Assembly (NCBI GenBank): GCA_963815675.1
Contig: CAWFHP010000009.1
Coordinates: forward strand, 248,235-312,234
Direction of reading: 5' to 3'
DNA: 64,000 nucleotides
Source: an uncultured Acidobacteriota bacterium
Lineage (GTDB): Bacteria; Acidobacteriota; Vicinamibacteria; Marinacidobacterales; SMYC01
Within the stretch, counting starts at the first letter, position 1. Every line of letters begins with the position of its first letter. The position numbers and the translations under genes were made by a program. Of the stretch, positions 2,160 through 22,886 are shown piece by piece. Under the pieces are notes generated by a model, which did not search any database, was not told the DNA's origin, and was given only the letters and a program-made list of their open reading frames with translations.

Positions 2160-3183
2160 TCACACGGGGTCGGCGAGCTTCAGAAGCTGCTTTCCGAAGT
2201 TCTTGCCGTGGTACAGACCGATGAGCGTCTTCGGTATGTTCTCGAAACCGGTTCGAATATCCTCCGCGAAGCGAATCTTGCCCTCCTTGACCCAGGCGGC
2301 AAGCTGCTCGGTGGCCTCTCCGAAGCGGGCGGCGTAGTCGAGAACGATGAAGCCTTCCATGCGACCGCGCTGGGGTACGAGCCTGAAGTAGTTCTTCGGC
2401 CCGGGTTGCGGCTCACTGGCGTTGTATATGGAAATCGCGCCGCTGAGGACTACCCTTGCGTTTCGGTTGATGCGGGCCAGCGCCGCATCGAGAATCGTTC
2501 CGCCGACATTGTCGAAGTAGACGTCGATCCCCTTGGGGCAGAGCTGGTCGAGCCTTTTTTCCACATCCTCGTTCTTGTAATCGATGACGCCGTCGAATCC
2601 GGCGGTTTCCACAACCCAGCGGCACTTCTCGGGTCCACCCGCGATGCCGACCACCTTGCAGCCCTGGATCCTCGCGATTTGACCCGCCACCGACCCGGTC
2701 GCTCCCGCCGCACCGGAGACCACGACGGTCTCGCCCGACACGGGCTTTCCGATTCTCGAGGAGGCCGAAGTAGGCGGTGAGACCGGTCAGGCCGAGAACG
2801 CCGAGCATCCAGCTCGGGGGCACGCCCTTCGGAACCTTGCTCACGGCAGACTTCGATTCGTCCGAGACCAGGGAGTAGTCCTGCCAGCCGAAAGCCCCTC
2901 GGACGAGCTCGCCGGCCTCGAATCCGCGGCAGTTGGACTCCACGACCTGCGCGACGGCCAGGGCGCGCATCGGCTGGCCGAGAGGAACGGGTGGAACGTA
3001 GCTCGGCCGGTCGCTCATCCATCCCCGCATGGCGGGCTCGAACGACAGTACCAGATTGCGCACCAGCATCTGGCCTTCATCGGGCACTGGTACAGACGTT
3101 TCCCGATACTCGAAGTTCGATTCCCGGACCATGCCTTCGGGACGGGAGACAAGTATCCATTGACGGTTCACACCTTCGGCCAT
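2160..3183 (-). CDS. NADP-dependent oxidoreductase, MDR (zinc-free alcohol dehydrogenase-like / alkenal reductase) family; apparent frameshift near 2750
   Basis: N-half in ORF 2413..3183 (MAEGVNRQWILVSRPEGMVRESNFEYRE...LTAYFGLLE). C-half in ORF 2160..2741 with Rossmann motif VSGAAGATGSVAGQIARIQGCKVVGIAG and the family C-terminus. Confidence 0.7.
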
Positions 3184-3555: not shown

Positions 3556-5740
3556 TCAGGGATTCGTCTCCAACGGATTCACCCAGAGGCCGCGGCCGAA
3601 CGTCGCCCCGTAGAGCTTTTTGGTGATGGGGTGGATTTCGAGATCCGTCACCGGGACGTGCGGGAGACCGCAGTTGAAGGGCTCCCAGCTCCACTCGAGA
3701 CCGCCCGTCTCTGTGGCGGTTCCCGTCACCCGATACACGCCTTTGGTCGTGGCCACGTAGGCGGTGTTCCCGTGGAACGGGTCGACGGCGATCATGCTGG
3801 ACATCTTCCAGTCTTCGCCCAGGGACAGGTCCGTCGGCAGGTTCTCGGTGATGTTCGTCTTGTTCCAGAAGACGAGCGGAGTGCCGCCCTGCTCGACATC
3901 GGAGGTGACTTTCTGGAGAATCCAGACACGGTTCGGCCCCTGGATCTTGCCGCTCCCATAGAACCCGGCCCAGAGCCTGTTCGAATCGCCGGGGTCGATG
4001 GCGAGGCCGACCGAGGCGGCGGAGGTGGGGAGGGTAAAGATCAGAGCCCAGCTTCCGCCGCCGTTGTCGGACGTCCAGATCTGGCCGGACGTCATGCCCG
4101 CGTAGATGGCGTTCGAGCTCGCATCGATGGCCACGCGCTTCACCTCACCGACGGCTTGCGGGTACGTCGTCTTGTCCGGACCGATGCCCGTCCAGGCGGC
4201 ACACGACGGGCACGTCGTCCAGTCGCCTCCCGCATCCCCGTGCTGGAAGGCCTCGGGACCGGCGGTGAGAAGGATGTCCGGGTCGGTTGGGTGGGTGACG
4301 AAGAACGGGTCGCCCTGGAAATGCTCTTTGTCCGGTAGTCCCGGAGCCCCCTTCCATTTCGCCTGGAAGGAGGCGAGCCAGCCTTCGGCTTTCGCCGTCT
4401 CAGTGAGGTACTGGTGTTGCGAAAAGATGGAGTCCGCGTCACCCGGAAGGATGCCGACGTAACGGCCGTCGCCGCCTCGCAAGAGAGTCCAGTCGGGCGA
4501 GCCGAGCAAAGAGGCGATGGTCCCGTTGTCCTGGGCTCCACCCAGAATCAGGTCGGCGCGGTCGTCCGACAGGGCGACGTCGAAAAAGGTCATCGTCCTC
4601 AGATCGTTGTTGATCGCGGTGCAGATCGTACCCTGCGAGACGCAGCGGAAAACGCCGCCATCGCCGGAGAAATAGAGGGTCGAGGGATCGCCGGGCTCGA
4701 AGGCATAGCCGTGCTGGTCGTCGTGGAGTCCGCGTATGCGCTGAAACGTCGTCCCGCCGTTCTCGGAGCGATAGGTCTGGATGTGGCCCATGAAGACGGT
4801 GGATGGGCTCATGGGGTCCACGAAGAGGTAGGCGTTGTACCAGCTCTCCCAATAGGCGCCGTCGAGCGCGACCGTTGGCTTGACCCATTTGTAACCGGTC
4901 TTGGCGGAGAAGCGCTTTTCCCATGAGTCTCCACCCTTCGTGCTCTGGTAGAGCTCGTAGTTTCCCGAATGGTGAATGCCGGCGTAGACAAACCCGGGAT
5001 CGCTCGGCGCGATTGCGATCCGCACCGCACCGGAGGCGCCATTGGGCAATCCGGTCGTCCCGTCGCTCAGATACTCCCAGGAGGCGTCGCCCGTCGGCGC
5101 ACCACCGCTCGTGCTTCGATAAACGCCCTTCTTGTAGATACCCACGTAGAATCTCGTCGTGTCCGTTGGGTGAGGCACGAAGCTCATGACGTCACCGGAC
5201 TTGATACGTGTCCAGGTGCCCGGACTGGCCTTGATCGCGAACTTGTCGATGACCCTCGTGCACCCAAACACCTTTGTTGCCCGCCGCGTACAGCTCGAAG
5301 CGATCGGGCGCGGTGTAGCGCACGAGCAAATTCTGGAACCGGCTTCCAATGGTCATATCGGTGAAAACGTGCCAGGACGTTCCGGCGTCGATGGATTTGT
5401 AGAGCCCGGCCGTGCTACCGGCGTAGAGAATGTCGGTATTCGTCGGGTCCATGGCCATGGCGCTGATGCCGAGAGAGGGCATGTAGTCGGACCGAGGAGA
5501 CCAGCTCGTGCCACCGTTCGTCGTCTTCCAGATGCCGCCGTAGGGTGATCCGATGTAGATGGTCTTCACGTCGTCTGGATCGACGACGATGCTATCGGCG
5601 CGGCCCGACCAGCCGTTCGTGAGCGCCGCAGGCCCCAACGACGTCCAGCTCGTTTGATCCGCGAGGCAAAGGGAATCGTTCGCGGTCCAGGTCCACCCTC
5701 CGGGAATAGACATCCGGTGCGTCGGTCCTCGGGACGACAT
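3556..5740 (-). CDS. BNR/Asp-box repeat beta-propeller domain (sialidase-like/sortilin-like) of a large secreted protein; internal frameshift near 5200-5350
   Basis: Repeated S-x-D-x-G-x-T-W motifs (TTNGGTSW, SIDAGTSW, STKGGDSW, SENGGTTF, TSDNGGGSW) across ORFs 5192..5740 and 3556..5349. It is probably the C-terminal part of the same gene as 5843..7174. Confidence 0.65.
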
Positions 5741-7174: not shown

Positions 7175-7285
7175 GATGCCTCCATCTGCATGGCCCGCCC
7201 GCTTTCGGACGACGCGTCCGCGTCCCCCGACACTCACCGCCCCCGGCAACGCATGCTAGGACAGCACCCGCGTCACGTCAACCGC

Positions 7286-7380
7286 CCTCCGCGCTCTCCT
7301 GGTTGCCTTTTCTTGCAAAGGCCAAGGCCTCTGCCCGTCGTGTGGGGCGAAGCGAGTCGCCATCTTCTCCTCACTACTCC
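7286..7380 (+). mobile_element. short remnant of an IS91-family transposase zinc-binding domain (about 30 codons)
   Basis: + strand reads LVAFSCKGQGLCPSCGAKRVAIFSSLL. About 80 bp are near-identical to 17911..18005 inside the larger IS91-like fragment. No ORF context remains. Confidence 0.5.
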
Positions 7381-7552
7381 CTCTCGGGGAACCGGTCGTG
7401 GACGATGCGATAGTCCTCATCGGGCTTGTACGCGGATGGGACGTTGGAATTCGGGGCTCAACCTGGAGGCGGAGGAGTGGGGCGCCTTCCCCGAGTGATC
7501 CCCGGGGGGCACGACCGGCGGGCGGCGAGAAGAGCCGCCCTGGGGGAGACAA

Positions 7553-8464
7553 TCAGGCGGAGGGGCTGACCCCCGGGAGTGCGCTCTCCGCCGCCGCCGC
7601 GGTCGGGCTCGCGGCCGCGGGCGGCCCCAGCAGCCTCACCCAGGGCAGGACCAGAACGACCGTCACCAGCATGTAGCACCCGATCAGAGGGACCAGCTCT
7701 CGTCGGCCGAGCAGCTCTGCGACCAGCAGCCCGATGACGAAGTTCTGCACCCCGACCTCGATTCCGAGGGTAAAGCTGTCTTCCCGGCCGAGGCCGAGCC
7801 TCCGCGCGGCGCCCCATGCCAGGAGCACCGCGCTCGCATGGAAGAGGCCGGCGCCCGCGAGGACCGTGAGGCTGAAGCTCGCCGCGATGGCGTGCCAGCG
7901 CTGGGCCACGTACGCCGCTCCGCCCACGGCGAAGAGCAGCAGCATCGCGCGCCGCGTCGGTCGCTCGAGGCGGCCGGCGAGCTCCGGACTCCTCGCGCCG
8001 ATAGCGACCCCAATCGCGAGCGGAGCCACGAGGATCGCGAAGCTGCCCGCGACCATCCGGGCCGCCGGCAGGTCGACGGCGGCGCCGCCGGTGAGCCTCA
8101 GGCCGACTCCGACCCAGAAGGGGATCGTCGCGATCCCGGCGAGAGTCGAGCAGGCCGTCAGCACCACCGAGAGCGGCAGCCTTCCACGACCCGCGAACGT
8201 GACCATGTTGGAGAGGGCGCCGCCCGGCACCGCGGCCAGCACGAAGAAGCCCAGGCCGATGCCGTCCGGCGCGGGGTAGGCCCACAGGAACAGCGCCGCG
8301 AGTAGCGGCAGCAGCAGGAGCTGTCCCGAGAGGCCCACGAGCAGCGCGCGCGGTCTCCTCAGAACCTCGTGGACGTACTCGAGCTTCAGCTGGATGCCCA
8401 GGAGCAGCGTCGCGACCAGCGGGACCGCCGCGAGGAGGGCGAACAGCGGGCTCGAGAGCGACAC
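7553..8464 (-). CDS. bile acid:sodium symporter (BASS/SBF) family transporter
   Basis: 303-aa polytopic membrane protein. Family motifs AAVPGGALSNMVTFAGRGRLPLSVVLTACSTLAGIATIPFW and GIEVGVQNFVIGLLVAELLG. Confidence 0.8.
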   Translation of the reverse strand: MSLSSPLFALLAAVPLVATLLLGIQLKLEYVHEVLRRPRALLVGLSGQLLLLPLLAALFLWAYPAPDGIGLGFFVLAAVPGGALSNMVTFAGRGRLPLSVVLTACSTLAGIATIPFWVGVGLRLTGGAAVDLPAARMVAGSFAILVAPLAIGVAIGARSPELAGRLERPTRRAMLLLFAVGGAAYVAQRWHAIAASFSLTVLAGAGLFHASAVLLAWGAARRLGLGREDSFTLGIEVGVQNFVIGLLVAELLGRRELVPLIGCYMLVTVVLVLPWVRLLGPPAAASPTAAAAESALPGVSPSA

Positions 8465-8474
8465 GGGCGTCCGA

Positions 8475-9851
8475 TCAGCGGGCCGCGGGCGCCGGTGCCG
8501 GGGTTCGCAGCGGGACCAGCCGCTGCAGCTTCCCCGTCTGGGAGTCGCGAGCGAAGCCGTCGACGGTCCGGACCGAGACCGCGGGCTCGGGCAGCCCGGA
8601 CGCTCTGAGGACCCGCGTCAGCTCCGCCGCGAGGGCCGTGCCGTCGAAGGGGCCGTCCGGCTGGATCTCGACGTCCAGGCCGTCCCGGGTCTGGCGGACC
8701 CGGTAGTCCGCGATGCCCGGCGTCTCGATCACGGGCGAGAGCACCGCCAGCGAGTGGACGCGCGCGCCGTCGTAGACGAAGGTCACGTACGACCGGCCCT
8801 CGACGGTGGCGACGACGTGACCGTGATCCGCCGCGTCCGGCCGGCGCGTGAGGCGGTCTTCCAGCACGTACCGGATGAGCGGCTGCGCGGTGTTGAAGAG
8901 GTTCGTCACCAGGATCCGCGCCGAGGGCGTCCCCGGCGGCACCGGACAGTTCTCCTCGTCGACGAGCTCGACGAGGGCGAGGTCGGTCCCCAGGGTGAAG
9001 GCCTCGGCGCCCGGGAGCCGGCCGCCGATCAGGCCCTCGCTGGTGGCGTAGGTCTCGAAGACCGGCGCCCCGAAGGCGGCGCCGATCTCGGCCTCGACGT
9101 CGCGACTCATCTGCTCGGCTCCCGCCATGATGCGGCGCGGGGCGATCGCCAGCCGCCCGGCCCGCTGCTCGGCCGCGAGGCGGTGGAGGAGGCTCGGGTA
9201 GCCCATGAGCATGTCGGGCCGGGCGTCGTTGAGCCGCTCGACGATCTGCGGAAGGGGCAGCGTGACGGGCGCCGGGACGAGGCGGACGAGCGCGCCGTCG
9301 AGCAAGGAGAAGGTGATCTGCGCGGCATGGGACGCGCTCGGCGCGCTGACCGCCGCCAGTGTCCTCGGGCCGGGCTCCGGGGGGCCGGGGAGCGCCACGA
9401 TCCGTGCGGCGTAGTCGGCCATCGCGTCCTCGCCGTAGACGAACATCCCCTTCAGGCCGGAGCTGCCGCCGGAGCCGATGGCGAGGTAGCGCTCCTCGAG
9501 CGACGCGGGGAGTTCGCCGGTCGCCGCCAGGTGCGCCCCGACCCTCTCGCGGGTGAGACGCCGGTCGGTGACGACCTCGTCGAACGACTCCATCATCTCC
9601 GCCTTGGTCATGACCGGCAGCGAGGCGAGCTCGCCGAGCTCGAAGCGGGAGGGGTCGACTCCCGCCAGGCGGCGCGCGTGGAACGGCGAGTGCTCGATCG
9701 CGTGCGCGAGCAGGTGACGGAGCCGCTCCTGCTGGTGCGCCTCGATCCGACGGCGGTCCCAGCGGAGCCGCTCGAGGTGGACGGGCACCTGCTCCATCAG
9801 CGTCTCCTGGAACCGGCGTCGCAGGTTTTCGAAGCTCTCGTTCACGCTCAT
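8475..9851 (-). CDS. phenylacetate-CoA ligase-like (PaaK / coenzyme F390 synthetase family) adenylate-forming enzyme
   Basis: Internal start MSVNESFENLRRRF (ATG comp 9849-9851) of ORF 8475..10205. AMP-binding-like motif AIGSGGSSGLKGMFVY and PaaK-like architecture. The start overlaps the tetR stop by 4 nt. Confidence 0.8.
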   Translation of the reverse strand: MSVNESFENLRRRFQETLMEQVPVHLERLRWDRRRIEAHQQERLRHLLAHAIEHSPFHARRLAGVDPSRFELGELASLPVMTKAEMMESFDEVVTDRRLTRERVGAHLAATGELPASLEERYLAIGSGGSSGLKGMFVYGEDAMADYAARIVALPGPPEPGPRTLAAVSAPSASHAAQITFSLLDGALVRLVPAPVTLPLPQIVERLNDARPDMLMGYPSLLHRLAAEQRAGRLAIAPRRIMAGAEQMSRDVEAEIGAAFGAPVFETYATSEGLIGGRLPGAEAFTLGTDLALVELVDEENCPVPPGTPSARILVTNLFNTAQPLIRYVLEDRLTRRPDAADHGHVVATVEGRSYVTFVYDGARVHSLAVLSPVIETPGIADYRVRQTRDGLDVEIQPDGPFDGTALAAELTRVLRASGLPEPAVSVRTVDGFARDSQTGKLQRLVPLRTPAPAPAAR

Positions 9852-10477
9852 AGCGGGTCCTCCTCCCTCTCCGGGCTCACGGGCCCCGACTCCGTCCACA
9901 GCAGCCACAACGCGTGGCGCGTCAGCTCGAACGTGGCGCCGGGGTCGCTCACGAGGTTCTCGAGTACGGTGCCGATGTCGAGGATGGCGATGAACCGGCC
10001 GACGTCCTCGGAGCTCCAGCGCGGCGTATGGCCGGTCCTCCGGGCGAGCGCGCGCCCGATCTCGGAGACCCGGTCGAGCGTTCTCGCGTGCAGCGCCGCG
10101 TAGCGGCGGTTGAGGTCGGGCAGCCGAGCGGCGTGGACCCGGAACTCGAGGACGGCCAGCGCCCAGGGAACGTCGGTCTCGCGGGTCGCCCGGGACTGCT
10201 CCCACAGGTCGCGCAGCGCCGCGCCCGGGGGGGCGTCTCGGACCTTCTCGAGCGAGCGGTTCACCCGTCGCTCCATCCGCTGCTCCATGAGGGCGAGGAA
10301 GAGGTCGTCCTTGCTCCCGAACTGGGAGTAGATGACGCCCTTGGAGAATCCTGCCTCCTCGGCGATCTGCTCCAGCGTGGCTCCGTGGAACCCCTTCTCG
10401 CGGAACAACTTTTCGGCCGCATCCAACACCAGGCCCCGATTCCTCGACGACTGCTCGGGGCGCCTGAGCCTCAACAT
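9848..10477 (-). CDS. TetR/AcrR family transcriptional regulator
   Basis: N-terminal HTH LVLDAAEKLFREKGFHGATLEQIAEEAGFSKGVIYSQFGSKDDLFLAL. 209 aa. It heads a three-gene minus-strand operon (tetR-ligase-BASS). Confidence 0.85.
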   Translation of the reverse strand: MLRLRRPEQSSRNRGLVLDAAEKLFREKGFHGATLEQIAEEAGFSKGVIYSQFGSKDDLFLALMEQRMERRVNRSLEKVRDAPPGAALRDLWEQSRATRETDVPWALAVLEFRVHAARLPDLNRRYAALHARTLDRVSEIGRALARRTGHTPRWSSEDVGRFIAILDIGTVLENLVSDPGATFELTRHALWLLWTESGPVSPEREEDPL

Positions 10478-10480
10478 ACC

Positions 10481-10510
10481 GATGATATTACAATACTGAC
10501 GGTATCACAT
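10481..10510. promoter_or_regulatory. AT-rich imperfect inverted repeat immediately upstream of tetR start (candidate TetR operator/promoter)
   Basis: gatgatattacaatactgacggtatcacatc has half-sites gatgata / tatca(ca)tc. It is the only AT-rich patch in a GC-rich context and sits 4 nt upstream of the tetR start codon. Confidence 0.3.
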
Positions 10511-10895
10511 CAATCCCGAATCTCGAGACGGAGGAGACCGGTGCGGCCTCCTCGCCCGTCGGCACAAACCGCCGCCGTCTCCGCGAGCGCGACGGGGTCT
10601 TCGAGCGGACGGCGATCCGCGAGGCGGTAACGCGCCACGGCCGGTACCGGGCTGGGGCGTCTCCCACGGTGTCCCGTCGCTCCCGCCGAGATTTCGCAGT
10701 TCTCGAGCTATTGGGTCCCCGCCAACCCCTCGGACCTGCTTAGAACCGCCTATCCGTCCCCGAGCCCCGCTAAGTACTCTCCAAAAGGGAGTTCCTGAAT
10801 CATCACGCCATCACAAAAACCGAAGGCAAACATCAGTTCTCCATCACGACCCGTTCGGGCTTACTTCCTAGGTTCCTCCTTGAAGGGAGGAAACC

Positions 10896-11750
10896 ATGAA
10901 ACGCTTGGTTGCCACCGCGGTCCTCAGCCTCGTTTCGGCCTCTCCTCTGACCGCCGAAGAAATCTCCTTCCGTTTAGCCCAGCAGCACTTCGTCATCGTG
11001 CCCGTTCACGTCAACGGGCAAGGCTCCTACGAGTTCCTGCTCGACACGGGAAGCACGACGTCGCTCGTCAATCGGGAGCTGGCGGAAGAGCTCGGCCTGA
11101 AGGCGCTCGGCGAGACCGCCATCAGGACGGCCACCGGCACCGAGCGCGTTGCGATCGCTCGGGTCGATCGCATCGAGCTCGGCTCCCAAACGGCGCAAAC
11201 GGTCCTGGTCGTCTCATCCCGTCTCGCGGGCATCCGTTCGGTCGATGACCAGGATCCGCGGCGTGCTCGGGTTTAACTTCCTCTCCCGCTTCCGCTACCT
11301 CCTCGACTACGAGGGCCGTCGCTTGGTGTTCGACGACAATCTAGCGGTAGAGGTAGAGGGCTCCCGAATCCCGTTCGACGCAAGCCGGAGCTCCATTGTC
11401 TTGGAAGCCGGCGGCGTCCGGTGGCTTCTGGACACGGGCGCGACGGGTGTGTTCCTGTTCGATTCCGACGTCCTCGACGTCCAAATGAGCCCGCGCGACG
11501 TCAGGACCGTTTCCACGAACGACGGCCGCAGAATCGCGGAATCGGGCTGGAATCCGCCAGGTCGACATCGGCGATGCTTCGTTCCATCGGCTAGCGGCGA
11601 CGCTTGCCCCACAGACGGGGCTGGAAGGCCGAGCGGATGGGCTTCTTCCAGGCACGCTCTTTGCCGCGATCTATTTTGACCACGGGCGAAACGTCATCGT
11701 TTTCAACCCACGCCTGGCCACTGGGTCTTATCCCCCTTGAAGCGTTTCGG
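10896..11750 (+). CDS. retropepsin-like (clan AA) aspartic protease with two tandem DTG domains, signal peptide; two apparent frameshifts (~11250, ~11550)
   Basis: Strong SD GGGAGG 6 nt before the ATG. Signal MKRLVATAVLSLVSASPLTA. First domain VHVNGQGSYEFLLDTGSTTSLV. Second domain VLEAGGVRWLLDTGATGVFLF in frame of 11149..11679. Family-typical C-terminus ...AAIYFDHGRNVIVFNPR ends at 11750 in a third frame. Confidence 0.6.
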
Positions 11751-11858
11751 AGTGAAGGCCGCCCCTTTCGCAACTATCTGATATCGAGTAGATTGTCCAT
11801 CTGAATCGACTGGCCCGCTTCTTGCCTCACCGTAGTCCCTTCATAGGAGCCGGGCCAG

Positions 11859-12923
11859 GTGACGATCAGGCATCGCGCGAAACCTGCCCTGCTGGCTCTG
11901 TCGTTTGTGGTTCTCACACACCCGCTCGACCTCGCCCAAACGCCGGGTGCCGGTAGCATCGACGGACGCGTTGTGGACGCGACAGGTGCTGCACTCTCCC
12001 AGGCGCGGGTCTCCGTGCTCCACCGCGGCACCGGCCTCGAGCGAAGTCTCGTCACGACGTCCAGCGGGCTCGTTCGGTTTCCTCTTCTTCCGGTGGGGCG
12101 CTATGCGCTGGAAGTATCGCTCGAGGGGGTTCGAGACGCTCCAAAGAAAGGACGTCCTCGTCTCCGTTCCCAGCGAAACCCCAACCGAAACCTGGGTCCT
12201 CCCTTCCGACTACGACGCAAACGGTCGAGGCCTGTACGACGCGCAGGACCGTTTGGACCCTCGCTACGGCGACTTCCAGGTGGAGGAATCGACGGCAAGA
12301 CGGCGCTACACGGCGCTCATCCTCTCGGCGAGACGGCGCTTCAAAAACCGCGTTCAGTTCGAGGCCTACTACACGCTCTCCGAGAACAGGACGGACGACG
12401 ACAACGAGAGAAGCGCGGGCGGGCCTCAAACAGTCAGCCGGAAAACCTCGACGCCGATTGGGCCTTCAGCTTCCTCGACGTTCGCGATCGACTCGTGGCC
12501 AACGGAGTCTTCGAGCTTCCCGGTGGCTTCAGTCTGGGAGCTCTTCTCGCCACGAACACGGGTCGCCCGTTCAACACCCTCATCGGCTCCGACGACAATG
12601 GGGATGGGAACGCCAACGACCGGGCCGTCGTGGATGATTCCAACCGCCAGAAGGTCCTCGACATGGGACTGGATCTCCCGGAGGGCCTCCAGCCGCGCAA
12701 CTCCGGCCGGCAGCCGGGCGTCTTCAACCTCGATCTGCGCGTCGCCAAGAACGTCGAGTTCGGAAAGAAGGGACGAATGGAGCTCATGGTCGAAGTCTTC
12801 AACGTCTTCAACAACGCCAACCGCTTCACCACGAGCAACGTGATCGGCTCGCCCAGCTTCGGGCGCCTTGACTCGGTGGGCACCCCTCGGCAGGTCCAGC
12901 TCGGGGCGCGCTATCGCTGGTAG
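11859..12923 (+). pseudogene. degraded TonB-dependent receptor-like gene (CarbopepD_reg N-terminus + beta-barrel C-terminus, internally deleted and frameshifted)
   Basis: N-terminus has a signal plus a carboxypeptidase-regulatory-like domain (GSIDGRVVDATGAALSQARVSVLHRGTGLERSLVTTSSGLVRFPLLPVGRYALEVSLEG). The C-terminus has barrel strands ending ...QVQLGARYRW. The middle switches to frame of ORF 11905..12843 (RYTALILSARRRFKNRVQFEAYYTLSEN). It is only about 350 codons, versus about 1000 for intact members. Confidence 0.5.
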
Positions 12924-15068
12924 TCCTGAGGAAGCTCGAGCATCCAGAGGTCGCCGGTCATCTCCGCGTACTCGTAGACAATCTGATCCCCCAGGGGTGA
13001 CCACGTGGGATAGCGGACGAAGGTATTCAAGGTCGTGTAATCGGTGAGCTGACACTCGCTCTTGTCGGTCCGCGAGACCCACCGCAGGTTCCAGACGTCG
13101 TCTCGCAGCGACGCGAACGCAATCTTGTCGCCGTCCGGCGACCAGGCTCCGGTAAAGTTCAGCCCCGGGGCGCTCGTCAATTGAACCGGGGTGCCCCCTT
13201 CCGCCGGGATGACGCCAATCTCAACGTCAAGGCCACGCTTCACCTCGAACGCGATGAGCTCGCCGTCGGGGGACCAATTGGGATACGCCATCATCTCGTC
13301 GTCGAAGGTGAGCTGGCGCTCCTCGCCGTCTTTAGTCGTGTTTGCCAGCCAGACATTGTCGATTCCTCCGTTCTTCCTCGATTGGAACGCGACTCTGGTC
13401 AGGTCGGGGGAAAGCGCTGCCCATACCCAGTGGGAAGCGAAGGAATGCAGGAACGCGACCTCGCGGGAGTCGACGTCGATGGTCCAGTAGCCTCCCCGCC
13501 CCTCGCGACGGGAGAAGAAAATCACGCGTTGGCCGTCCGAGCTCCACCGAGAGACCCGATCGGGGCCCGGGTGGGTCGTGAGTCGCCGCGCGTTCGCGCC
13601 GTCGTCATCGATGAGCCACACGTCGTGAGCCGCCCCGGTGACGGCTCGGTCGAAGGCGATCGTGCGGCCATCGGGAGAGAACTGCGGGAAGTAGTTTCGC
13701 GCGTTCGTGTAGTGCGTCAGCTGCCGGGGCGGCTCGGTAGGCTCGTGCGTCTCCCTCGAAAGGGAGACCGAGGCGAAATTGCTCGACATGACCACGCTCG
13801 CATAGACGAGTGTTTTTCCATCGCCGGAGAAGCTGGGATAGCGTATCGCCGGCGATGGGGAAACTCTCTTTATCACCAGTCGTGGCTCGGAGCCGTCGAC
13901 CGTCAGGCTCACAAGGCTCACGTTCCACAGCCCGTAGAAGCCGTCTCCGTCGCCCGTGAAGTACAGCTCGTCTCCCGATGGAGCGTAGACGACATCGTAG
14001 AGTCTTTGCGCAAACCCTGACTCCCGGGAGAAACCGGCGTTCGGCACTTGCTCGAGCTCACCCTCGAGCGAGACGGTCCAGAGCTTCGAGAGGTTGTGGT
14101 CGGAGGCCACAAAGGCGATGCGGTCCCCCTTGGGGGACCAGGCTGGGTCGCCGTGACCGCCGGGTGGGTTGTCGACCGTGGTGAGCGGGTGCGGCGGTCC
14201 GCCGTCGAGGGGACAAATCCAGAGGGTGGAAGGCGGAAGGGTTATGGAGTTGCTCCCGAGATCTTCCAATGGCTCGGACTGGAACGCGATCCGCTGGCCG
14301 TCCGGGGACCAGGTCGGTCGACTTCCGAAGTCGGTCAGCTTTCGAGGAGACCCGCCAAAGGCCGGCACCGTCCAGATTCCACCGCGATCCTTCGAGTAGT
14401 AGGCGATGACGTCTCCCGCGGGAGACCAGGCTGGCTGGAAGTTCTGAGGATCCGTCCGAGGTGAGCTGTATCTCGCCTCCGGCGGGGGTGAGCTGTTGCA
14501 CGTAAATCTCGAAGCTCCCGCTGCGGTTCGAGCTGTAGGCCACGGCGTTTCCGTCCGGAGACATCGAGGGGAAGATATCCAAAGCGGTCGAGCTCGTCAG
14601 TTGAACGGGCCGGTCGGTCCAGGACAGGTCCTCGCTCCGGGGACGAGAGAACATCAGGACGACCGCGAGTCCGACGAGGATGACTCCGGCCGCGACCGCG
14701 ACGAGGAGCGGCTTCTTGCCACGAGCTGGATGCGCCTCCTCCTCGACGACCCGAACGCCGGCAACGAAGCGGTAGCCCCGCCGCGGAACGGTCTCGATGT
14801 ACTTCGACCCGTGGGCGTCGTCGCCCAATGCTTTGCGCAGCTGCGCCACCACCCGTGTCAGCGCGTTCTCGCTGACGAACGTCTCGCCCCACACCGCATC
14901 CAGGATTTCCTGCTTGTCTAGGAGCTCTCCCCGGTGCTGGATGAAATAGACGAGAAGATCGAAGGCTTTGGGCTCGAGGAGCACCGGTGCACCGGCTCGC
15001 AGGACGAGCTCGGACGCTCCATCGACCCGAACGTCACCGAACTCGTACGTGGCTGGCAGGCTTGGCAT
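12911..15068 (-). CDS. CadC-like transcriptional regulator: OmpR/PhoB-type winged-helix DNA-binding domain + TM helix + TolB-like (PD40/WD40) beta-propeller; apparent frameshift near 14400
   Basis: ORF 14058..15068 has a wHTH (LLEPKAFDLLVYFIQHRGELLDKQEILDAVWG...RRGYRF), then TM LLVAVAAGVILVGLAVVLMF. ORF 12911..14368 continues with repeated ...SPDG..IAF... propeller blades. Confidence 0.7.
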
Positions 15069-15288
15069 CGAGCTCCGCTAACCCGGAAGTGCTCCGGCGA
15101 TTCTACCCTGCTGGTACAGGCGTCGTCGGTTTCAAACAGACAGCTCGGTTCAGAAGGGCTCTTTGCCGCCTGCCACACCGCTTGGACTTTTTCATCCGCA
15201 CACTACGCATAGCGTATGCAATCGGAAAGAGGATGTTTGTCCTGAGGGTAAAAGGCAACCCTTTGCATGGTGCTAGGATTGTAACCTC

Positions 15289-16620
15289 ATGTCGAGCGAG
15301 TTCGAAGCGCACGGGTGGACGGGGGAGCGAGGCCTTCCCACGCTTTACCTCGACGACGTGTCTGCGATCCCTTTTCTCGTCAATATCGCTGGTGTCGAGG
15401 CTTACCAACATCGGGCGCGCACTCGGGCGGGGGATGGGGATCTCTTCGCCGCCGTGACCCCGCTCACGGAAGGCTACGAGGAGTACTGCCGGGAGACTCT
15501 GGGACTCGGACATCCGGAGCTCGTCCTCGCCGATCCGGTGGGTAAACCCATCGAGGTGGCGCGAGCCTGCGCCACTGGCAAGGCCTACGAAAGGATCGCG
15601 GCTTGGGCTAGAAACGCGGGTCACGTGCTCCTACACCCCTACATGAGCATCGAGCCCGTATGGGAGCTCGCGGTTCGCGTGGCGCGCGACGCCGGGGCGA
15701 CCGTGCGCGTCATCGGGCCCCCGCCGCCCGTGACCTGGATTGCGAACGACAAAAAACGCTTCACCGAGCTCGTTCGAAGCGTCCTCGGGCGAGAGTGGAT
15801 TGGACCCACGCTCGTCGGAAGCTCTGCCGAGGGCATCGCTTCCAACCTTGCGAAGCTCGCCACGGAGCACAACCGGGTCGGTCTGAAACGTACCTGCTGC
15901 GCTTCGGCGATGGGCAATCAGGTCTTCGACTCGAGCGACTTGCGCGCGCGTGCCCAGCAGGACGTCGTTCAAACCGTTCAAGACTTCCTCAATCGCACCG
16001 AGTGGGACGGAAGGGAAGAAGTCCTCGCCGTCAGCTGGGAAGAGACGGATCGATCGCCGTCGACACAAACGTGGATCCCGCCGAGAGGTCAAGGCTCTCC
16101 CATCGTCGAGGGGATCTACGAACAGATTCTGGAAGGCAAGGAGAAAATCTTCGTGGGGAGCCGACCCTCTGGCCTCGGCTCCGCGATCGAGGAGCGCCTT
16201 TCGACGGCGAGTCTCCGCGTGGCCGAAGCACTCCAGGAGTTGGGTTATGTCGGGCGCTGTTCTTTCGACTTCATCGTCCTCGACGACGACGTCATTCGGT
16301 TCACGGAGTGCAACGGACGTTGGGGTGGAACGAGCATTCCCATGTCGCTTCTCGATCGGCTCTTGTCCGGACCGAGGCCTCCGTATCGCGCCCAGGATTT
16401 CGTGCACGGGAAGCTGGTCGGGGCAAGGTTCACCGAGCTTCTTCGATGCGTCGATGACGAGCCATACGATGCGACTGCGCGCAGGGGTCGATTCATCTTC
16501 TACAACGTCGGTCCGCTCGAGCGATCGGGCAAGCTCGACGTGATTGCGCTCGCGACGCGCCAGGAAGAAGCGGAGCGTGCGTTGACGGAGGGGTTGCCGA
16601 AGTTGTTGGGGCTGTCTTAG
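15289..16620 (+). CDS. ATP-grasp fold protein of unknown specificity
   Basis: 443 aa. ATP-grasp-like elements are WIANDKKRFTELV, VGLKRTCCASAMGNQVF and FTECNGRWGGTS (compare VIEVNPRPGG). There is no closer match from sequence alone. Confidence 0.5.
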   Translation: MSSEFEAHGWTGERGLPTLYLDDVSAIPFLVNIAGVEAYQHRARTRAGDGDLFAAVTPLTEGYEEYCRETLGLGHPELVLADPVGKPIEVARACATGKAYERIAAWARNAGHVLLHPYMSIEPVWELAVRVARDAGATVRVIGPPPPVTWIANDKKRFTELVRSVLGREWIGPTLVGSSAEGIASNLAKLATEHNRVGLKRTCCASAMGNQVFDSSDLRARAQQDVVQTVQDFLNRTEWDGREEVLAVSWEETDRSPSTQTWIPPRGQGSPIVEGIYEQILEGKEKIFVGSRPSGLGSAIEERLSTASLRVAEALQELGYVGRCSFDFIVLDDDVIRFTECNGRWGGTSIPMSLLDRLLSGPRPPYRAQDFVHGKLVGARFTELLRCVDDEPYDATARRGRFIFYNVGPLERSGKLDVIALATRQEEAERALTEGLPKLLGLS

Positions 16621-16959
16621 AACGTCTCCTGCGGGAGAGGGACTTTCCAGGTGCGTCAAACGCCAATACTGTGGCGTTCTTCGTCTCACCCGCACGGGGT
16701 TCAGACCTTGATTTCGGCCCGCGCTCCCTCACCCACCCGCCTTCGGCGTGCGACCTCTCCCGCCGGGAGGGGAGAGGCTGAACCCCAGCGTGCGCCGGTC
16801 GATCTCGCCCCGGTACCCTCGCCTTCCGGGCGGCGCGGCAGCTGATTCCGCCGCGGGCACGAACTGCGCAACCAGGCCTCCGCACGAGCGCTCAGAGCTA
16901 CGGGCGGCCGGCGCCCGACGGTCGCATCCGGGCGAAAGCGGCCGCCGATACCATACAAA

Positions 16960-17252
16960 GCGCGAGACGGGCGTGCACCTGATCGTCGGTCCGTTCTTCG
17001 TGGCGCACGAGCTGCGCGAGTCGTTCGGCGACCGGCTGCACGCGATGGTCGCGCGCCACCGTCGCAGCGAGGAGCGCGGCAAGAGGCGCGCCTGCGCCGC
17101 CGCGCCGAGCGCTACGAGATTCCCACCGTCGCCGCCTCCGAGGTGCTGTACCACAGGCGCGAGCGGCGCGACCTGCAGGACGTTCGACCCGATCCGTCGG
17201 GGGTGCTGTTCGAGCGCTTCCTCTCGCGCGAGCGCTCGGCGTCGACGGCGTG
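16960..17252 (+). pseudogene. fragment of an error-prone DNA polymerase DnaE2 (PHP-domain region), frameshifted remnant
   Basis: + strand frames read ...GDRLHAMVARHRRSEERGKRRA... then ARLRRRAERYEIPTVAASEVLYHRRERRDLQDV..., matching the DnaE2 N-terminal region (compare ...LARRHGLPLVATGDVHMHVRSRKPLQDV). About 95 codons only, with no start and no downstream polymerase core. Confidence 0.35.
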
Positions 17253-17654
17253 AGGCATGCCGTTGCTGACGCACAGCACACGCACGCGGGCCACCTGACG
17301 AGGCGCCCGGCTTTGATTCGAAGTAATGCTCCGACATCGACATCGGACTCGGGCCATCAATATAGCTATCTGAGATCGCGACGGTTTCCATTCGAGGTCC
17401 TGAAGGCGACGACGGAAGAGGTGGGGAAGGCGAACGCCGGGGCGCTCCAGACAGGCTTGGGGTCCGGGGGGTCGGCGACGGTCTCTTTCAGGATCGTGTC
17501 GGGGTCGATGTGCTCCGCCTCATCCTCGAGGTTCAGCAGGATGCGGTGACGCCTCGCGGAAGGCCGATCCTGCGCGGCGGCGGTAGTAGCGAACGAACGC
17601 GAGCTGAGCCGCCTTCAGGGCGGTACTCGATGACGGATCTCGTCTTGCTCCGTC

Positions 17655-18070
17655 ATGGGGAGCCTTGCTCCATCCCTCGGAGCCGTCGCCTGCCCGCCGG
17701 CCGTCTACCGACGAAGGAGACCGCGCGCCACCTCGCTCTATCAGCTCCTCGAGACCTACTATGGGCGCCTCAAAGGCCTATGGGAGGAGCGTTTCGAGCG
17801 ACGCTTCGGCTTCTGGCGGGGCTTCTACGACACCGCCGTCCTGAGGTATCTCGACTGCGGGCTCTTCGAGTCGGGCTTCGCCCGCGCCGTTTGTCCGAAG
17901 TGTCGTTTCGAGTTCCTCGTCGCCTTCTCCTGTAAAGGCCGGGGACTCTGCCCGTCGTGTGGGGCGAATCGAGCCGCCATCTTCTCCTCACTACTCCACG
18001 AAAGGATTCTCGCCGACGTCCCGCACGCCCAGTGGGTTTTTGCTTTACCCAAGATGCTTCCCTGCGTAGG
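17655..18070 (+). mobile_element. N-terminal fragment of an IS91-family (Y2 HUH) transposase: zinc-binding domain plus first residues of the catalytic domain, truncated
   Basis: YQLLETYYGRLKGLWEERFERRFGFWRGFYDTAVLRYLDCGLFESGFARAVCPKCRFEFLVAFSCKGRGLCPSCGANRAAIFSSLLHERILADVPHAQWVFALPKML matches the IS91 TnpA N-terminus (CxxC...LVAFSCKGRGFCPSCGGRR...VPxRQWVxxLP). Similarity ends after about 120 codons. Confidence 0.6.
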
Positions 18071-18369
18071 ACAGCGCCCGTCCCAGGTCTCGTTCTCGAA
18101 TCGCGCGCCGGAAACCCTTGAGCTTGAGCTCGAGCTCGTGCAGGAGAGCTTCATAGTCAAGCGAGGAAGGAGGTTTTCTTGGCACCGCCCGTCTCCAGAC
18201 GAGACCGAATGGGCCGCAATCTACACTCGAATCGGATGGCGTGCCACCCGCGGGCATTTCCGTCGTGCGTCGACTCTCCTCGAAGGAGAAAAGATCCGGG
18301 GAGTCCGCAGAACCGGGGCGGAAGGACAAATCAAGGGCGCGGGACTCCCGCTCGGTTAGAACCCCGAAC

Positions 18370-20321
18370 TCAGCGCTTCAGTGCCGACGTAAGGCTTCGA
18401 GCGAGGGCCTCCAGGAGGAAGGGCTTCTTCAGAAAGGCCGCCTCCACCCGATCCACGGGCCGCCTCTGCGGTTGGTGAGCATCGTAGCCGCTCACGAGGA
18501 TCACGCTCGGCGGGTGAGGCAGGGTGCGGATGAGAGCGAGCGTGTCCTCACCGCTCAGGCCCGGCATCGTCATGTCCAGGAGCACGACATCGAATGCCTC
18601 GGGCTCCGACGACAGCACGGCGAGCGCCTCGTCGCCGTTGGTCGCGGTCGAGGCCGCGAGCCCCAGCTGTTCGATCATCTCGACCGTGACCCGGCGGACA
18701 GTCTCCTCGTCGTCCACCACCAACACTCTGGTGCCGGGAGCGAACGACTCCACCGATTCCCCCGGTCCGGTCCCCGCCGCCGCCGGTTGGGGTTTCACCT
18801 CGACCGCCGGAACGGCGAGGAGCAGTACCCGGACCCGGGTTCCCCGGCCCGGAGCGCTCTCCACTTCGATTCGAGCCTCCGTGCCCGCGAATGATGCCCT
18901 GGACCGCCGCGAGTCCGAGGCCGTGCCCCGAAAACTTCGTGGTGAAGAACGGATCGAAAATACGCGCGCGGGTCTCATCGTCCATGCCGCAGCCGTCGTC
19001 GGTGACTTCGATGGCGGCATACGCAGCCGGCCCGGCGCTTGCCTCCCGTACCGACTCGACTTGCCGGGTCCGGAGGGAGACCGTGCCGCCACGCTCGTCG
19101 ATGGCGTCCGAAGCGTTGGTGATCAGATTCATCACGACCTGCTGGATCTGGGCGGCGTCGCCTTTGGCGGTAGGGCGTCCCGGGTCCAGGTCGATGTCGA
19201 GCGAGACGTTCTTCGAAATGCTGATTCGCAGGAGTCCGGCCATCTCTTCGATGAGCTCGTTCAGGGGAATCGGCTCGACGACGAACCGACCGCGTCCGGA
19301 ATAGGCCAGCAGCTGGTTCGTCAGATTCCGACGCCCGCTGAGCGCTCAGCCGCAGTCGTTCGAGAAAGGTGCGCAGCCGGCCCTCCTCCGGCACCTCGTG
19401 GAGTGCGAGCTCCGCATTGCCGAGGATGCCGACGAGGAGATTGTTGAAGTCGTGCGCCACGCCGCCGGCGAGAAGCGCGAGCCCCTCCATCTTCTGCGCC
19501 TCGCGGAGGCGCTCCTCGAGCTGACGATGCGTCGTGATCTCCATCGCGGTGCCGATGGTCCCCACGATGGTGCCGTCGGCGTCCCGGAGCGGATCGAGAG
19601 AGCAGGTGAACCGGTATCTCCCGAAGCTCGTCTCGTAACGCTGCGGTTCTCCCTCAAGCGCACGTCTGTGGCGAGGAAGGTCTTCGTGATCTCCCAGGTA
19701 CTCGGAGACGGTCAACCCCACCACTTGATCGGGAGCGAGCCCGAGAATCGCGAGACCCTTTCCCTGGGACGAAGTGAAACGAAGCTCACGGTCCGTCGAC
19801 CAGACGATGGCGGGCACCTGTTCGTAGACGACGCGCAACTGGGAGTTGCTCCGGGCGAGCTCGTCCCGGCTCTCGCGAAGGCGCTGCTCGGCGTCCCGAT
19901 GAGAGGTGACGTCGGTCGCGAAGACGATGAAGCTCGACCCGCGCCCGTACGGGTCGCCGATGCCGTGGACGTGCAACGACGCCGCAATAACGCTCCCGTC
20001 CCTGCGGTGTAGACGCACATCGGCTCCGGACGCCGCGCCCCCGGCAGCCCGGGCAAAGAGCTCCTGGCAGTCGCCGGGATCGACGATGACGTCCCGGTTC
20101 GCGTTGAGGGTGAGCATCTCCTCGGCCGAGTCGTAACCGAGCAGCCCGACGAAAGCTCGGTTCACGAACAGGTAGCACCCGTCGATGGTGATCAGGAACA
20201 CGCCGAAAGGTGCGGCGTCGAAGAGGATCTTCAAGTCGGGGGCGCTGAAACCGGCTTCGAGCGACCCCGTCGGCCCGAGAGACGGAGTCGGCGAGACCGC
20301 GGGATGGTCCGCGGAACCCAT
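18370..20321 (-). CDS. hybrid sensor histidine kinase (PAS-PAS-HisKA-HATPase_c-REC); two apparent frameshifts (~19300, ~18600)
   Basis: ORF 18975..20321 has two PAS domains and H-box GGVAHDFNNLL. ORF 18548..19243 has HATPase_c (DAAQIQQVVMNLITNASDA...GHGLGLAAVQGI). ORF 18370..19092 has the HATPase end plus a receiver (VLVVDDEETVRRV...VLLDMTMPGLSG). Confidence 0.75.
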
Positions 20322-21016
20322 ACGCGATTATCGCACGCGGCCGGCCGGCTGCCGAACGCTGCCGCCGGGATCCCCTCCGCGTTATGGGAACGCCCGCCGC
20401 CGACGTATCCTCTCTTTCGTGGTCGGACAGTCCGACGTTACGGCGAGGTCCCGGTCCATGAGCGCGCGCCGCCGTGGCGCCTGCGGCACCGGCCGCGGGC
20501 TCGGCCTCGGCCTCGGGCTTTGGCTTGGAATCGCGTTCGCTGTCAGCAAACCTCCTTCTGCCGTCCGTCGCTTCCGGGCAGCCGGCCGATGCCGTCTTCA
20601 CCGGATCGATTGTGACGTTGAATCCAGCGGGACGACCCTGGAGGAAGCCAAGCAAAAGGCGACACGATACATGATCAACTACTTGGTGGAGGTCAGAGGG
20701 CTCTCGCCTGAAGATACATGCTGTTCTCAGTGGCAGGCGACCTCGAAATCGTTGAGGCCGTCGACAAACCCAACATGCTGGTCGTCATGCGTATGCCCAA
20801 TAACGTTTTCACCGGCTCTTGATGACATGCAATGGAGAGTGATATCCAACACTTATAAGGCTTCCTCGTGTCAAGAGGGCAGTAAGATCGCTGGAGTCAC
20901 AGGACCTTCGGTTATCTCGGATCCCTACCCGCTCGTGGCCACGATCACTCGCATCGTCCGCGGCCTCTCCGCCGACCAGCCGGTGGAGCGCGCGGCGACG
21001 CTCGGAGTGAACCCAC

Positions 21017-22793
21017 TCAGCCGCGAGCCGTGAGCCCGTTCCGGATCTCGCGGCAGCGCTTCAGGCGCGCCGGGGCGGGAACCCTCCCATAGACGGATTC
21101 CGCGGCGTCGAGCTCGAGCTCGGCCGCCTCCGGATCCGAATCGAGAAGAATCTCCGCGAGACGCACCCGGATTTCCGCCGCGCTCAAACAGGCCTCCATC
21201 TCCGTCCAGATCCGGAGCGACCGGCGAATCTGTCCTATCGCGTCCTCCGCCCGTCCCATCGCGAGAGCGAGCTCTCCCCGCGCTCGGAAGACGATCGCCT
21301 GAAACGCGGGAGTAGACCAGAGCTCCGGATGCGCGTCCAGCTCCGCGAGCGCCTTGCTCGCGCGGCCGGGCTCACCCGCGAGCGCGGCGGCGATGGCGAG
21401 ATGGGCGAGGAGCGAGCCTCGCCGCTGCTGGTGCGTCCAATCGGTGTCGCCGACCGCCCGCTCGAGGCTTCGCACTGCAGCCTCGACCCGTCCCCGTTCG
21501 AGCAGCAGCAGCGCCCAGCCGGGCTGCGGCTCCCAGCCGAGCTCGTGAGCGCGTCGAAACGCCGCTTCCGCCCCGTCGAGCTCTCCTTTCGCGAGCTGGA
21601 TACTCACCGAGGACGCGCAGCGCATCGCCCTCGGCCCAGGGTGCGCTCTCCGCGAGCTGCGCCGCGGCCTCCGTCACTTCCCCTTCGGCTTCGCCGAGCT
21701 CACCACGAAGTGAGAGGACCTCCGCCCGGTGGAGCCGACAGAGCCCGGTCATGCTCCCGAGACCGTGACTCGCGCACCAGCGCCCGAACTGATTCGTCCA
21801 CTCCGCCGCGCGCCGCCAGTCGCCGCGGTTGAGACTGGCCCAGATGACTCCACAGTACACGAGGCCGCCCGACCAGGGAGTGACACCACCTCCGAGCACC
21901 GCCGCCGCCGCCTCGTCCTGAAGGTCGTTCCCGCGGTGCACGTCGCCAATCGCGAGCAGAGACAGTCCCCAATAAAGAAGCCCGAGCGCTTCGACGTCAG
22001 CGTCCTTTCGGGACGCCCCGATTCGATAGGCCTCCTCGCCGAAGGCGGCCGCCTGCTCGAGCTTCCCTTCGATGAGCGCGACACGGCCCGAGCCCCACTG
22101 CACGAGACCATGCTCCGGCGATTCGGGCACGTCGCGCAGGTAGCTCGCGGCGCGCTGGAGCCAGCCCCGCGCCACCGCCATCTCCCGTCGCTCCAAGTGG
22201 ATCTGGGCGAGCGCCGCGGCGGCACGCGCCGCGCCCCGGCAGTTCTCCCGGTCGAGATAGGCGCGGACGGCGCGCTCGAGCGGCCCGACGGCGGAGCCCG
22301 GCTGTCCCGCGCACACGGCGGCTTGCGCGAATCGCTCGAGCTCGGCGGGGACGAGCGGCTTCTCGCGCTCGGCCCTCTCGAACTCGCGAACCGCGCTCCG
22401 CCAGTCGCCTTCCTCAGAAGCCCGCCGTGCCCCCGCGAGCGGATCTCCTTCAGCCCGCGCGTTCTCCATGGGGGCTTCGATTTCCGGTTCCGGGCGAGCT
22501 TCCTGGACGAAGCGGTATCCCTGGCGGGTGTAATTGCGGATGGACCCCTCACAGCCTCCGCGGCGAAGCGCGGCGCGCGCGAGGCTTACGGCCCGATGGA
22601 GAGACCCTTCGCCGACGTTCACGCCGCGCCAGAGCGTCTCCAGGAGCTCGGCGTTGGGCACCACCCGCTCGCGGTTCCGCACCAGGTAGAAGAGAAGCTC
22701 CAGCACCCGTGGTTGCAAGTCGAGGGCGTCGCCGTCCAGCCGGAGCTCCCGCGTCTCCTCGTCCAGTTCGAACGTTCCGAATCGATGGATCAT
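21017..22793 (-). CDS. SARP/AfsR-like regulator: OmpR/PhoB-type winged helix + BTAD/TPR-like helical repeat domain; apparent frameshift near 21610
   Basis: Start MIHRFGTFELDEETRELRLDGDALDLQPRVLELLFYLVRNRERVVPNAELLETLW...YRF (ATG comp 22791-22793). A long Ala/Leu-rich TPR-like region follows, continued in ORF 21017..21625. Confidence 0.7.
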
Positions 22794-22886
22794 CGCTTCC
22801 GTCCGCCCATGATAAGCGTTTGATAAGAATCCGGAAAGGTGCGCTCTTCCCGTTCCTGCGTAATCTCGCATGAAGGAGACAACGAC

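Follow-up and report, generated by a model that had tools for sequence, protein, structure and literature searches.

Members of the IS91 family of insertion sequences (IS) start transposition at oriIS, downstream of the transposase gene tnpA, terminate it at terIS, upstream of tnpA, and insert beside the tetranucleotide CTTG or GTTC (PMC13181058). Termination fails in 1-10% of events or more, and the DNA adjacent to the element is then co-mobilised through what is called one-ended transposition, and up to 40 kb can be moved by these elements (PMC13181058). Here, we describe a 10.6-kb interval flanked by two IS91-family fragments in a contig of an uncultured Acidobacteriota bacterium (CAWFHP010000009.1), within a window, meaning the whole stretch of DNA that was analysed, of 64 kb. 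The original prediction for this locus held that the two fragments bracket a block of accessory genes, formerly composite or rolling-circle-mobilised cargo that has since eroded. Our analysis retains horizontally acquired cargo beside one of the fragments and gives up the pair as brackets of one unit. The reading that we favour, with a probability of roughly 60%, is that the two fragments are dead scars of different IS91 copies, that a foreign cassette lies by the left scar, and that the interval is a mosaic of this cassette and host-like DNA. The overall picture is one of ordinary genome decay. The features on which this reading turns are as follows.

7297..7380, plus strand: left IS91-family relic, an internal scrap of 84 nucleotides (nt) or 28 codons, with no start codon, IS end or catalytic part.
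7381..7472, no strand: spacer of 92 nt from the left relic to the cassette edge, neither IS91 coding sequence nor cassette.
7473..10533, minus strand: discrete foreign cassette of 3,061 bp, carrying genes for a TetR repressor, a PaaK-like ligase and an SBF/BASS transporter, with a promoter and palindromic operator at ~10478-10520.
7553-8464, minus strand: SBF/BASS-family transporter (Pfam).
8475-9851, minus strand: AMP-binding/PaaK-like adenylate-forming ligase of 458 amino acids (aa) (Pfam; homologues are named PaaK-like).
9848-10477, minus strand: TetR repressor (Pfam).
10534..17617, no strand: rest of the interval, native-like in composition (Pfam, base composition and tetranucleotides).
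17618..18066, plus strand: right IS91-family relic, with a terIS-side left end, a conserved leader of ~37 nt, an ATG at 17655 and ~135 N-terminal codons (zinc-binding domain).

The two relics share a single direct repeat. MAFFT, a repeat finder and blastn agree on an ungapped match of 84 nt between 7297-7380 and 17914-17997, identical at 74 of the 84 positions (88.1%), with a blastn E value of 7e-23 to 1e-23, and this is the sole copy pair of the repeat within the window. Both copies lie on the plus strand, in frame for the peptide LVAFSCKG(Q/R)GLCPSCGA(K/N)R(V/A)AIFSSLL. The original prediction had placed a repeat of about 85% identity at 7291..7380 and 17911..18005, on the same strand and with this peptide, and had called for an alignment in which less than 70% identity or a match shorter than 30 bp would mean a chance similarity. 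That alignment was run, and the repeat as observed bears the claim out and clears both limits. Pfam and tblastn also uphold the assignment of both pieces to the IS91 family in the same orientation.

The larger fragment is the right one. Its open reading frame (ORF), 17655-18359, matches the Pfam domain Zn_Tnp_IS91 (PF14319) over residues 54-131 with an E value of 1e-13. Among 1.8 billion representative proteins, 7,440 relatives were found; those of full length measure 392-440 aa and include P0124 (434 aa, 60% identical) as well as P0164 (421 aa). In tblastn comparisons, 17682-18059 corresponds to residues 12-131 of P0124 (59%) and to residues 14-138 of P0006 (78%), and the full-length relatives place the relic at residues ~12-131 of a transposase of roughly 430 residues. 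At the nucleotide level 17706-18041 is 90.5% identical to another locus, L134. The relic is broken off at ~18060, from where the ORF continues into unrelated sequence. Homology among independent copies (the window, L002 and L003/L004) begins ~40 nt before the ATG, at ~17618, and includes an invariant TCTCGTC. Because this start of homology is shared, the right piece appears to be an element's genuine left end, the 3' two-thirds of the element having been deleted. A hairpin predicted at this left end, as a test for a terIS palindrome, is no better than those of shuffled sequences (z -0.9). The fragment is no assembly artefact, since an Illumina contig of 1.19 kb (L001) matches 17474-18663 without a gap at 99.83% identity.

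The left relic corresponds to residues ~84-110 of the same roughly 430-residue transposase (tblastn, 7290/7299-7379). It is 85% identical to P0006 over 27 aa (tblastn E value 1e-10), is matched by P0124, P0134 and P0164 as well, and holds the Zn_Tnp_IS91 domain as a core of 27-30 residues. The catalytic domain Y2_Tnp (PF04986) is absent: when P0124, P0164, P0134 and P0006 were compared with the whole window by tblastn, nothing past residue ~131 was matched. Since no part of Y2_Tnp exists anywhere in the 64 kb, both pieces are almost certainly dead IS91-family relics. The same four references, including the full-length P0124 and P0164, revealed no third IS91 piece in the window. Neither oriIS nor the 3' end of an IS91 element was found there by tblastn, and the 3' regions of related copies are unlike the window junctions. 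The spacer beside the left relic matches none of the IS91 3' ends taken from other loci.

The two relics differ as much from each other as copies from different organisms do. Between the left and right cores there are seven synonymous and three non-synonymous changes, giving a synonymous distance (dS) of 0.40 and a ratio of non-synonymous to synonymous distance (dN/dS) of 0.13 by the Nei-Gojobori method; for the right relic against L134, dN/dS is 0.16. The synonymous bias implies that the cores diverged under protein selection, as separate functional elements. The right core is 88.9% identical to L003, which comes from an unrelated metagenome, as compared with 88.1% between left and right. The left/right distance is thus about that between copies from different organisms, which argues for scars of two different insertions. 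From these comparisons the relics appear to be remnants of two different IS91 elements and not two ends of one unit. At 84 nt and 88% identity, moreover, the shared core would in our estimation be a poor substrate for homologous recombination.

The segment beside the left relic has a distinct character. The guanine-plus-cytosine (GC) content climbs from ~65% to 72-76% at ~7.4-7.5 kb and drops back at ~10.4-10.5 kb, so that 7450-10510 stands at 72.1% GC against 63.8% in the window outside the cassette. Its tetranucleotide distance is 0.033 compared with a null of 0.0168 +/- 0.0028, and none of 95 null segments of equal size is as extreme. All three cassette genes are intact, the TetR and ligase genes overlap by 4 nt, and the best non-self matches of the ligase outside its own 90% cluster are 55-64% identical. 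A contig of 5.5 kb (L135) carries 7473-10533 at 96.5% identity over 3,062 nt between flanks unrelated to those of the window; genes for an aldehyde dehydrogenase and a 2-hydroxyacid dehydrogenase lie in these flanks, whose GC content is 62%, against 72% in the cassette. Two further copies, L092 and L122, are 91% and 90% identical to the cassette and have different upstream sequences, and their homology stops at the -35 element of the TetR promoter, (C)TTGA, at window positions ~10506-10513. The three-gene operon also exists in more diverged forms (56-64% protein identity), which lie in other, unrelated contexts: L085-87, L088/89, L090/91, L132 and L133. The cassette edges at 7473 and 10533 coincide with neither relic, the left relic ending 92 nt before the first of them; the boundary on the SBF side rests on one close copy, L135. 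Taken together, composition and comparison indicate that the 3.06-kb cassette is a discrete, horizontally acquired and recently exchanged segment, and its presence alone at 96.5% identity elsewhere points to a separate and more recent arrival.

The promoter/operator of the cassette is conserved among its copies as TTGA-N3-GATACC-N4/5-GGTAT-N-TTAATATC-N3-GGTATG (window 10478-10520 on the minus strand, L122:714-752, L092:254-292 and L135:1369-1405). The palindromic half-sites GATACC...GGTATC overlap the TetR start codon as well as the region from -35 to -10, a placement that suggests TetR autoregulation.

The cassette is also found repeatedly near IS91 debris. In three of nine contexts, namely the window, L122 and L085-87, an IS91 fragment is found 0.4 kb or less from an edge of the cassette. 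In the window the fragment is the left relic, 92 nt from the cassette. In L122, the fragment corresponds to transposase residues 317-410 and is found ~325 nt upstream, on the same strand, and a CTTG stands exactly at the junction of the IS91-side sequence and the cassette. L085-87 contains three C-terminal fragments, all antisense to the operon, one of them reaching to within ~5 nt of the TetR promoter. No IS91 fragment was found in 80 loci around the ATP-grasp gene of the interval (1.24 Mb) or in 40 of 42 metagenome loci with PaaK-like genes, the two excepted being L122 and the short L092. With the window excluded, IS91 sequence is present in two of eight cassette contexts compared with none of 114 comparison loci, which are taxonomically mixed and amount to ~1.4 Mb in all (p ~0.004). 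Recurrence of the same cargo beside the IS91 family in independent contexts was found for the 3.06-kb cassette only.

We propose that IS91-family elements may have helped to move the cassette, either by one-ended or trans-mobilised rolling-circle transposition or by recombination in IS91-rich hot spots, and that later deletions would have left the IS91 scars. The cassette circulates among related uncultured bacteria, often beside IS91 fragments, and an IS91 role in its movement is for that reason the most likely explanation. We infer a causal involvement of IS91 in its mobility from this association, at about even odds.

A model in which the cassette replaces the middle of an IS91 transposase gene, as a mobile insertion cassette that retains both IS ends, was considered and rejected because the junctions are inconsistent. 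The window junction is at transposase residue 110 on the SBF side, and the L085 junction is at residue ~360 on the TetR side. The IS91 fragment of L122 has the opposite relative orientation, L085 lacks an N-terminal scrap beside SBF, and L135 lacks any scrap, which together rule against the replacement of a mid-transposase segment. An alignment of the sequences 3' of the transposase stop in the three L085 copies, L002 and L122, made in search of oriIS, brought together only two L085 copies, and the aligned L085 regions contain nothing that matches the window junctions. DNA folding of the junction regions gave no structure better than shuffled sequences (z -1.1 to +0.2), and tblastx of short GC-rich junction pieces against all loci returned low-complexity noise only.

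The remaining 7 kb of the interval is genome-like in composition. Positions 10511-17616 have a GC content of 63.8%, which is also that of the window elsewhere outside the cassette, and their tetranucleotide distance is 0.0110 compared with a null of 0.0112, a distance that 44% of the null segments equal or exceed. For the whole block the distance is 0.0110 against a null of 0.0090 +/- 0.0022, and 15% of null segments are at least as far. The compositional scan that had been proposed for the 7-18 kb block therefore detects the cassette, 7473-10533, as deviant and does not detect the block as a whole. ARAGORN found no tRNA or tmRNA in the 64 kb, Rfam gave no match, and Pfam found no integrase or recombinase domain among the scanned ORFs of 5.8-19.1 kb. 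An old genomic island boundary, which the original prediction also suggested, may still exist here without such markers. Judged by composition alone, the remaining 7 kb would be native. Its contents, with one further short feature outside the interval, are listed here.

7257..7270, plus strand: 14-mer TAGGACAGCRCCCG, with a second exact copy at 18067-18080, these being its only two exact matches in the window.
10896-11679, plus strand: two overlapping Asp_protease_2 (retropepsin-like) ORFs (Pfam).
11859-12923, plus strand: truncated TonB-type receptor, with a CarboxypepD_reg domain and the C-terminal end of an outer-membrane (OMP) barrel (Pfam).
12911-15068, minus strand: CadC-like/TolB-propeller regulator (Trans_reg_C and PD40), split over two frames (Pfam).
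15289-16620, plus strand: pre-ATP-grasp/ATP-grasp gene, intact (Pfam).
16621-17617, no strand: stretch of ~1 kb without a recognisable gene (Pfam).

Most of the gene content named in the original prediction (the TetR-ligase-BASS operon, the retropepsin, the TonB receptor, the CadC-TolB regulator and the ATP-grasp gene) is confirmed by Pfam. The DnaE2 fragment that it placed at 16.7-17.6 kb receives no Pfam support: in the six frames, none of seven long stop-free stretches reaches an E value of 0.1 or lower, and the single marginal match in 16.65-17.65 kb is to TetR_C_28 (E = 0.14).

Four genomes of Ca. Marinacidobacterales, the group to which the nearest genomes found belong, contain relatives of the ATP-grasp gene at 80% identity, with no shared neighbour and no IS91 piece. 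Relatives of 52-64% identity are spread across Acidobacteriota, Myxococcota and Planctomycetota. No other gene of the window lies within +/-10 kb in any of the 80 ATP-grasp loci. Sequence comparison suggests a widely exchanged single-gene module, poorly anchored and with no link to IS91. The shared sequence covers 15143-16638, that is, the gene plus only ~150 nt upstream.

Several genes are split over two overlapping frames, both inside and outside the interval: 2160-3183 (an oxidoreductase of the zinc-dependent alcohol dehydrogenase type), 3556-5740 (Sortilin/BNR-like), 10896-11679 (retropepsin-like) and 12911-15068 (CadC-like/TolB). They are either real pseudogenes or assembly indels; 17474-18663, the sole stretch compared with an independent Illumina contig, contains no indel. 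Because split genes occur outside the interval too, as the alcohol dehydrogenase at 2160-3183 illustrates, the decay is not specific to the block.

How the relics and the intervening genes came to lie together may be explained in several ways. One explanation takes the whole of 7.3-18.07 kb as a single IS91 transposition unit whose cargo drifted to the composition of the host. Replication would have begun in the right element, failed to end at its terIS, continued leftwards across the block and come to a halt in or at the left element, after which erosion affected both elements and several of the cargo genes. The geometry of the locus agrees with this, as the relics are in direct orientation, the left end of the right relic has the look of a genuine IS terminus, and the block is placed 5' of the right relic, on its terIS side, the one that is co-mobilised in one-ended transposition (PMC13181058). 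The block's 10.6 kb stays below the reported maximum of 40 kb, several of its genes are broken, and synteny is lacking between the ATP-grasp gene and its 80% relatives. After one old event, however, the cassette and the remaining sequence should both be blurred, whereas 10511-17616 is genome-like while the cassette stays a sharp outlier. The cassette found alone at high identity elsewhere speaks for its separate arrival, the relics have diverged in the manner of copies from different organisms, oriIS and the catalytic part are missing, and split genes are found outside the block as well. We therefore regard this explanation, including the route just outlined, as very doubtful. The claim that the pair brackets one unit is not supported, in view of the 12% divergence of the cores, the lack of a catalytic domain and oriIS, a foreign signature limited to 7473-10533, the occurrence of the cassette by itself and the unshared neighbours of the ATP-grasp gene; that the two relics do not bound one unit is fairly secure.

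At the other extreme, the IS91 scars would be unrelated debris in a recombination-prone stretch and would have played no part in moving the intervening genes. The cassette would then have come by transformation followed by illegitimate or homologous recombination, or with an unrecognised element, and its nearness to the scars would reflect shared 'junkyard' regions. Consistent with this, neither IS91 termini nor significant hairpins are seen at the cassette ends, and CTTG or GTTC is missing on the left-relic side; IS91 pieces are absent from L135 and from five further contexts (one of them with a flank of 263 nt only); and elsewhere IS91 scars occur in clusters with one another and with other IS (L085, L134, L003 and L002). 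It is harder to reconcile with an IS91 fragment at 0.4 kb or less from the cassette edge in three of nine independent contexts against none in ~1.4 Mb, and with the CTTG, the IS91 target, exactly at the L122 junction between IS91-side sequence and cassette (PMC13181058). We consider this explanation unlikely. Equally unlikely, in our view, is that the cassette is a genuine IS91/ISCR-type transposition unit, moved in trans or by one-ended transposition among uncultured marine-sediment Acidobacteriota, with the left scar as the footprint of one such event.

The reading of two independent scars, a cassette exchanged with IS91 involvement and host-like remaining sequence faces difficulties of its own. 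L135, the closest copy of the cassette, has no IS91 piece in its flanks of 1.1-1.35 kb. Five of the nine contexts are without any IS91 piece, and the L092 flank of 263 nt is too short to judge. Orientation and junction type vary among the window, L085 and L122, so there is no one conserved IS91-cassette architecture; no terIS or oriIS is recognisable at the cassette edges, and the flank on the left-relic side reads AGGAG instead of CTTG or GTTC. The background loci are of mixed taxa, and communities with the cassette may simply be rich in IS91 scars. Finally, the case for 10.5-17.6 kb as native is one of composition, and the foreign composition of old insertions is lost with time.

Of 144 close homologues of the right relic, mostly above 55% identity, all 120 listed are 76-241 aa long, including those on long-read contigs of 7-8 Mb, and full-length proteins appear only at 60% identity or less. 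This acidobacterial IS91 lineage seems to survive mostly as 5' relics. Scars elsewhere cluster, with three fragments in L085, two in L134 and a nested insertion in L003, and the IS91 copy of L002 adjoins Transposase_mut and rve genes. Many IS91 N-terminal ORFs of 137-138 aa (P0002, P0003, P0005 and P0017) share the end junction ...AQWVF|TLWTQ(L)*. The corresponding DNA (L003:2947-3569, L004:418-1040 and L134:544-1166) has 79% homology from the left end of the IS to 190 nt past the junction. In L134 and L003/L004, this homologous stretch includes an overlapping conserved ORF of 61 aa, with dN/dS of ~0.37 in frame and above 1 in the other two frames; for the zinc-domain part of these copies dN/dS is 0.2 at a dS of 0.8. 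In L003, the transposase picks up again 2.7 kb downstream of the junction. These junction copies are either a site-specific nested insertion or a propagated two-ORF derivative.

The 14-mer TAGGACAGCRCCCG was considered as a meaningful mark beside both relics and dropped. Being upstream of one relic, the left, and downstream of the other, it is not collinear with the repeat; its observed count was reached in 7 of 100 shuffles with two mismatches allowed, and a 23-nt extension has an E value of 0.58. The pairing is probably due to chance. The left copy overlaps the -10 element (TAGCAT) of a sigma-70-like promoter on the minus strand, upstream of the gene for a CARDB protein, and this is the only sigma-70-like promoter found in 7.1-10.9 kb. 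The CARDB protein, in the left flank, has no homologue except itself.

To the right of the interval, 24810-29721 holds a 1,298-aa ORF that fuses KaiC, KaiB and PAS domains, followed by a sensor-kinase segment. Part of this segment has a paralogue, in inverted orientation, in the kinase at 18935-19496 beside the right relic (72-77% nt identity; inverted repeats I1 and I2). A second high-GC patch at 21000-22800 (70-72% GC, GC skew ~-0.12), with a TPR protein and long ORFs without a Pfam match, resembles the cassette in composition.

For annotation, ORF 17655-18359 and the 84-nt scrap count as pseudogene debris, and neither transposon nor island is a fitting label for the 10.6-kb interval. If the link between IS91 and the cassette is causal, environmental Acidobacteriota and cargo other than resistance genes would come within the reach of IS91/ISCR-type gene capture, which would extend a known mechanism modestly. 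A metabolic operon for uptake/activation would then have been captured in ISCR style, well away from the clinical Proteobacteria and the resistance genes for which such capture is known.

The locus may be compared with several known systems, one of them the tRNA/integrase island. A patch of foreign composition with accessory functions beside mobile-element debris is common to both, but there is no tRNA in the 64 kb, no integrase or recombinase in the scanned ORFs, and the anomaly is only 3 kb long. Composite transposons of the Tn5/Tn10 type likewise have two same-family IS sequences around accessory genes. In the window, by contrast, these are an 84-nt internal scrap and a 450-nt 5' fragment, 88% identical over 84 nt; IS91-family transposition does not proceed via paired inverted-repeat ends, and the interval is not one unit, the cassette occurring alone in L135, L092 and L122. 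Another system for comparison is the IS91 family itself (IS91, IS801 and IS1294; HUH/Y2). The window relics have PF14319 and the motif FSCK-x-R-x-x-CPSC, and their full-length relatives of 420-440 aa have Y2_Tnp. The relic leader with its invariant TCTCGTC contains CTCG, the terIS cleavage tetranucleotide of IS91, and the IS91 side of a related contig meets its neighbour at CTTG, the IS91 target. Unlike that family, both window copies are truncated, with no catalytic domain, oriIS or orf121-like gene, and the window lineage is acidobacterial and ~40-60% identical to any full-length protein retrieved. The units formed by ISCR elements or one-ended transposition, such as ISCR1 and ISCR2 beside resistance genes, differ in that the cargo here is a TetR-ligase-transporter operon and not a resistance gene, no intact element is attached, junction types vary, and the cassette ends are not demonstrably derived from terIS or oriIS. 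For the right relic the geometry would fit such a unit, the block being on its 5' (terIS) side, but oriIS and the catalytic domain are gone. The units resemble the locus in that same-orientation IS fragments stand on either side of the operon in the window and in L085, and in that the operon recurs beside IS91 transposase sequences in different contexts.

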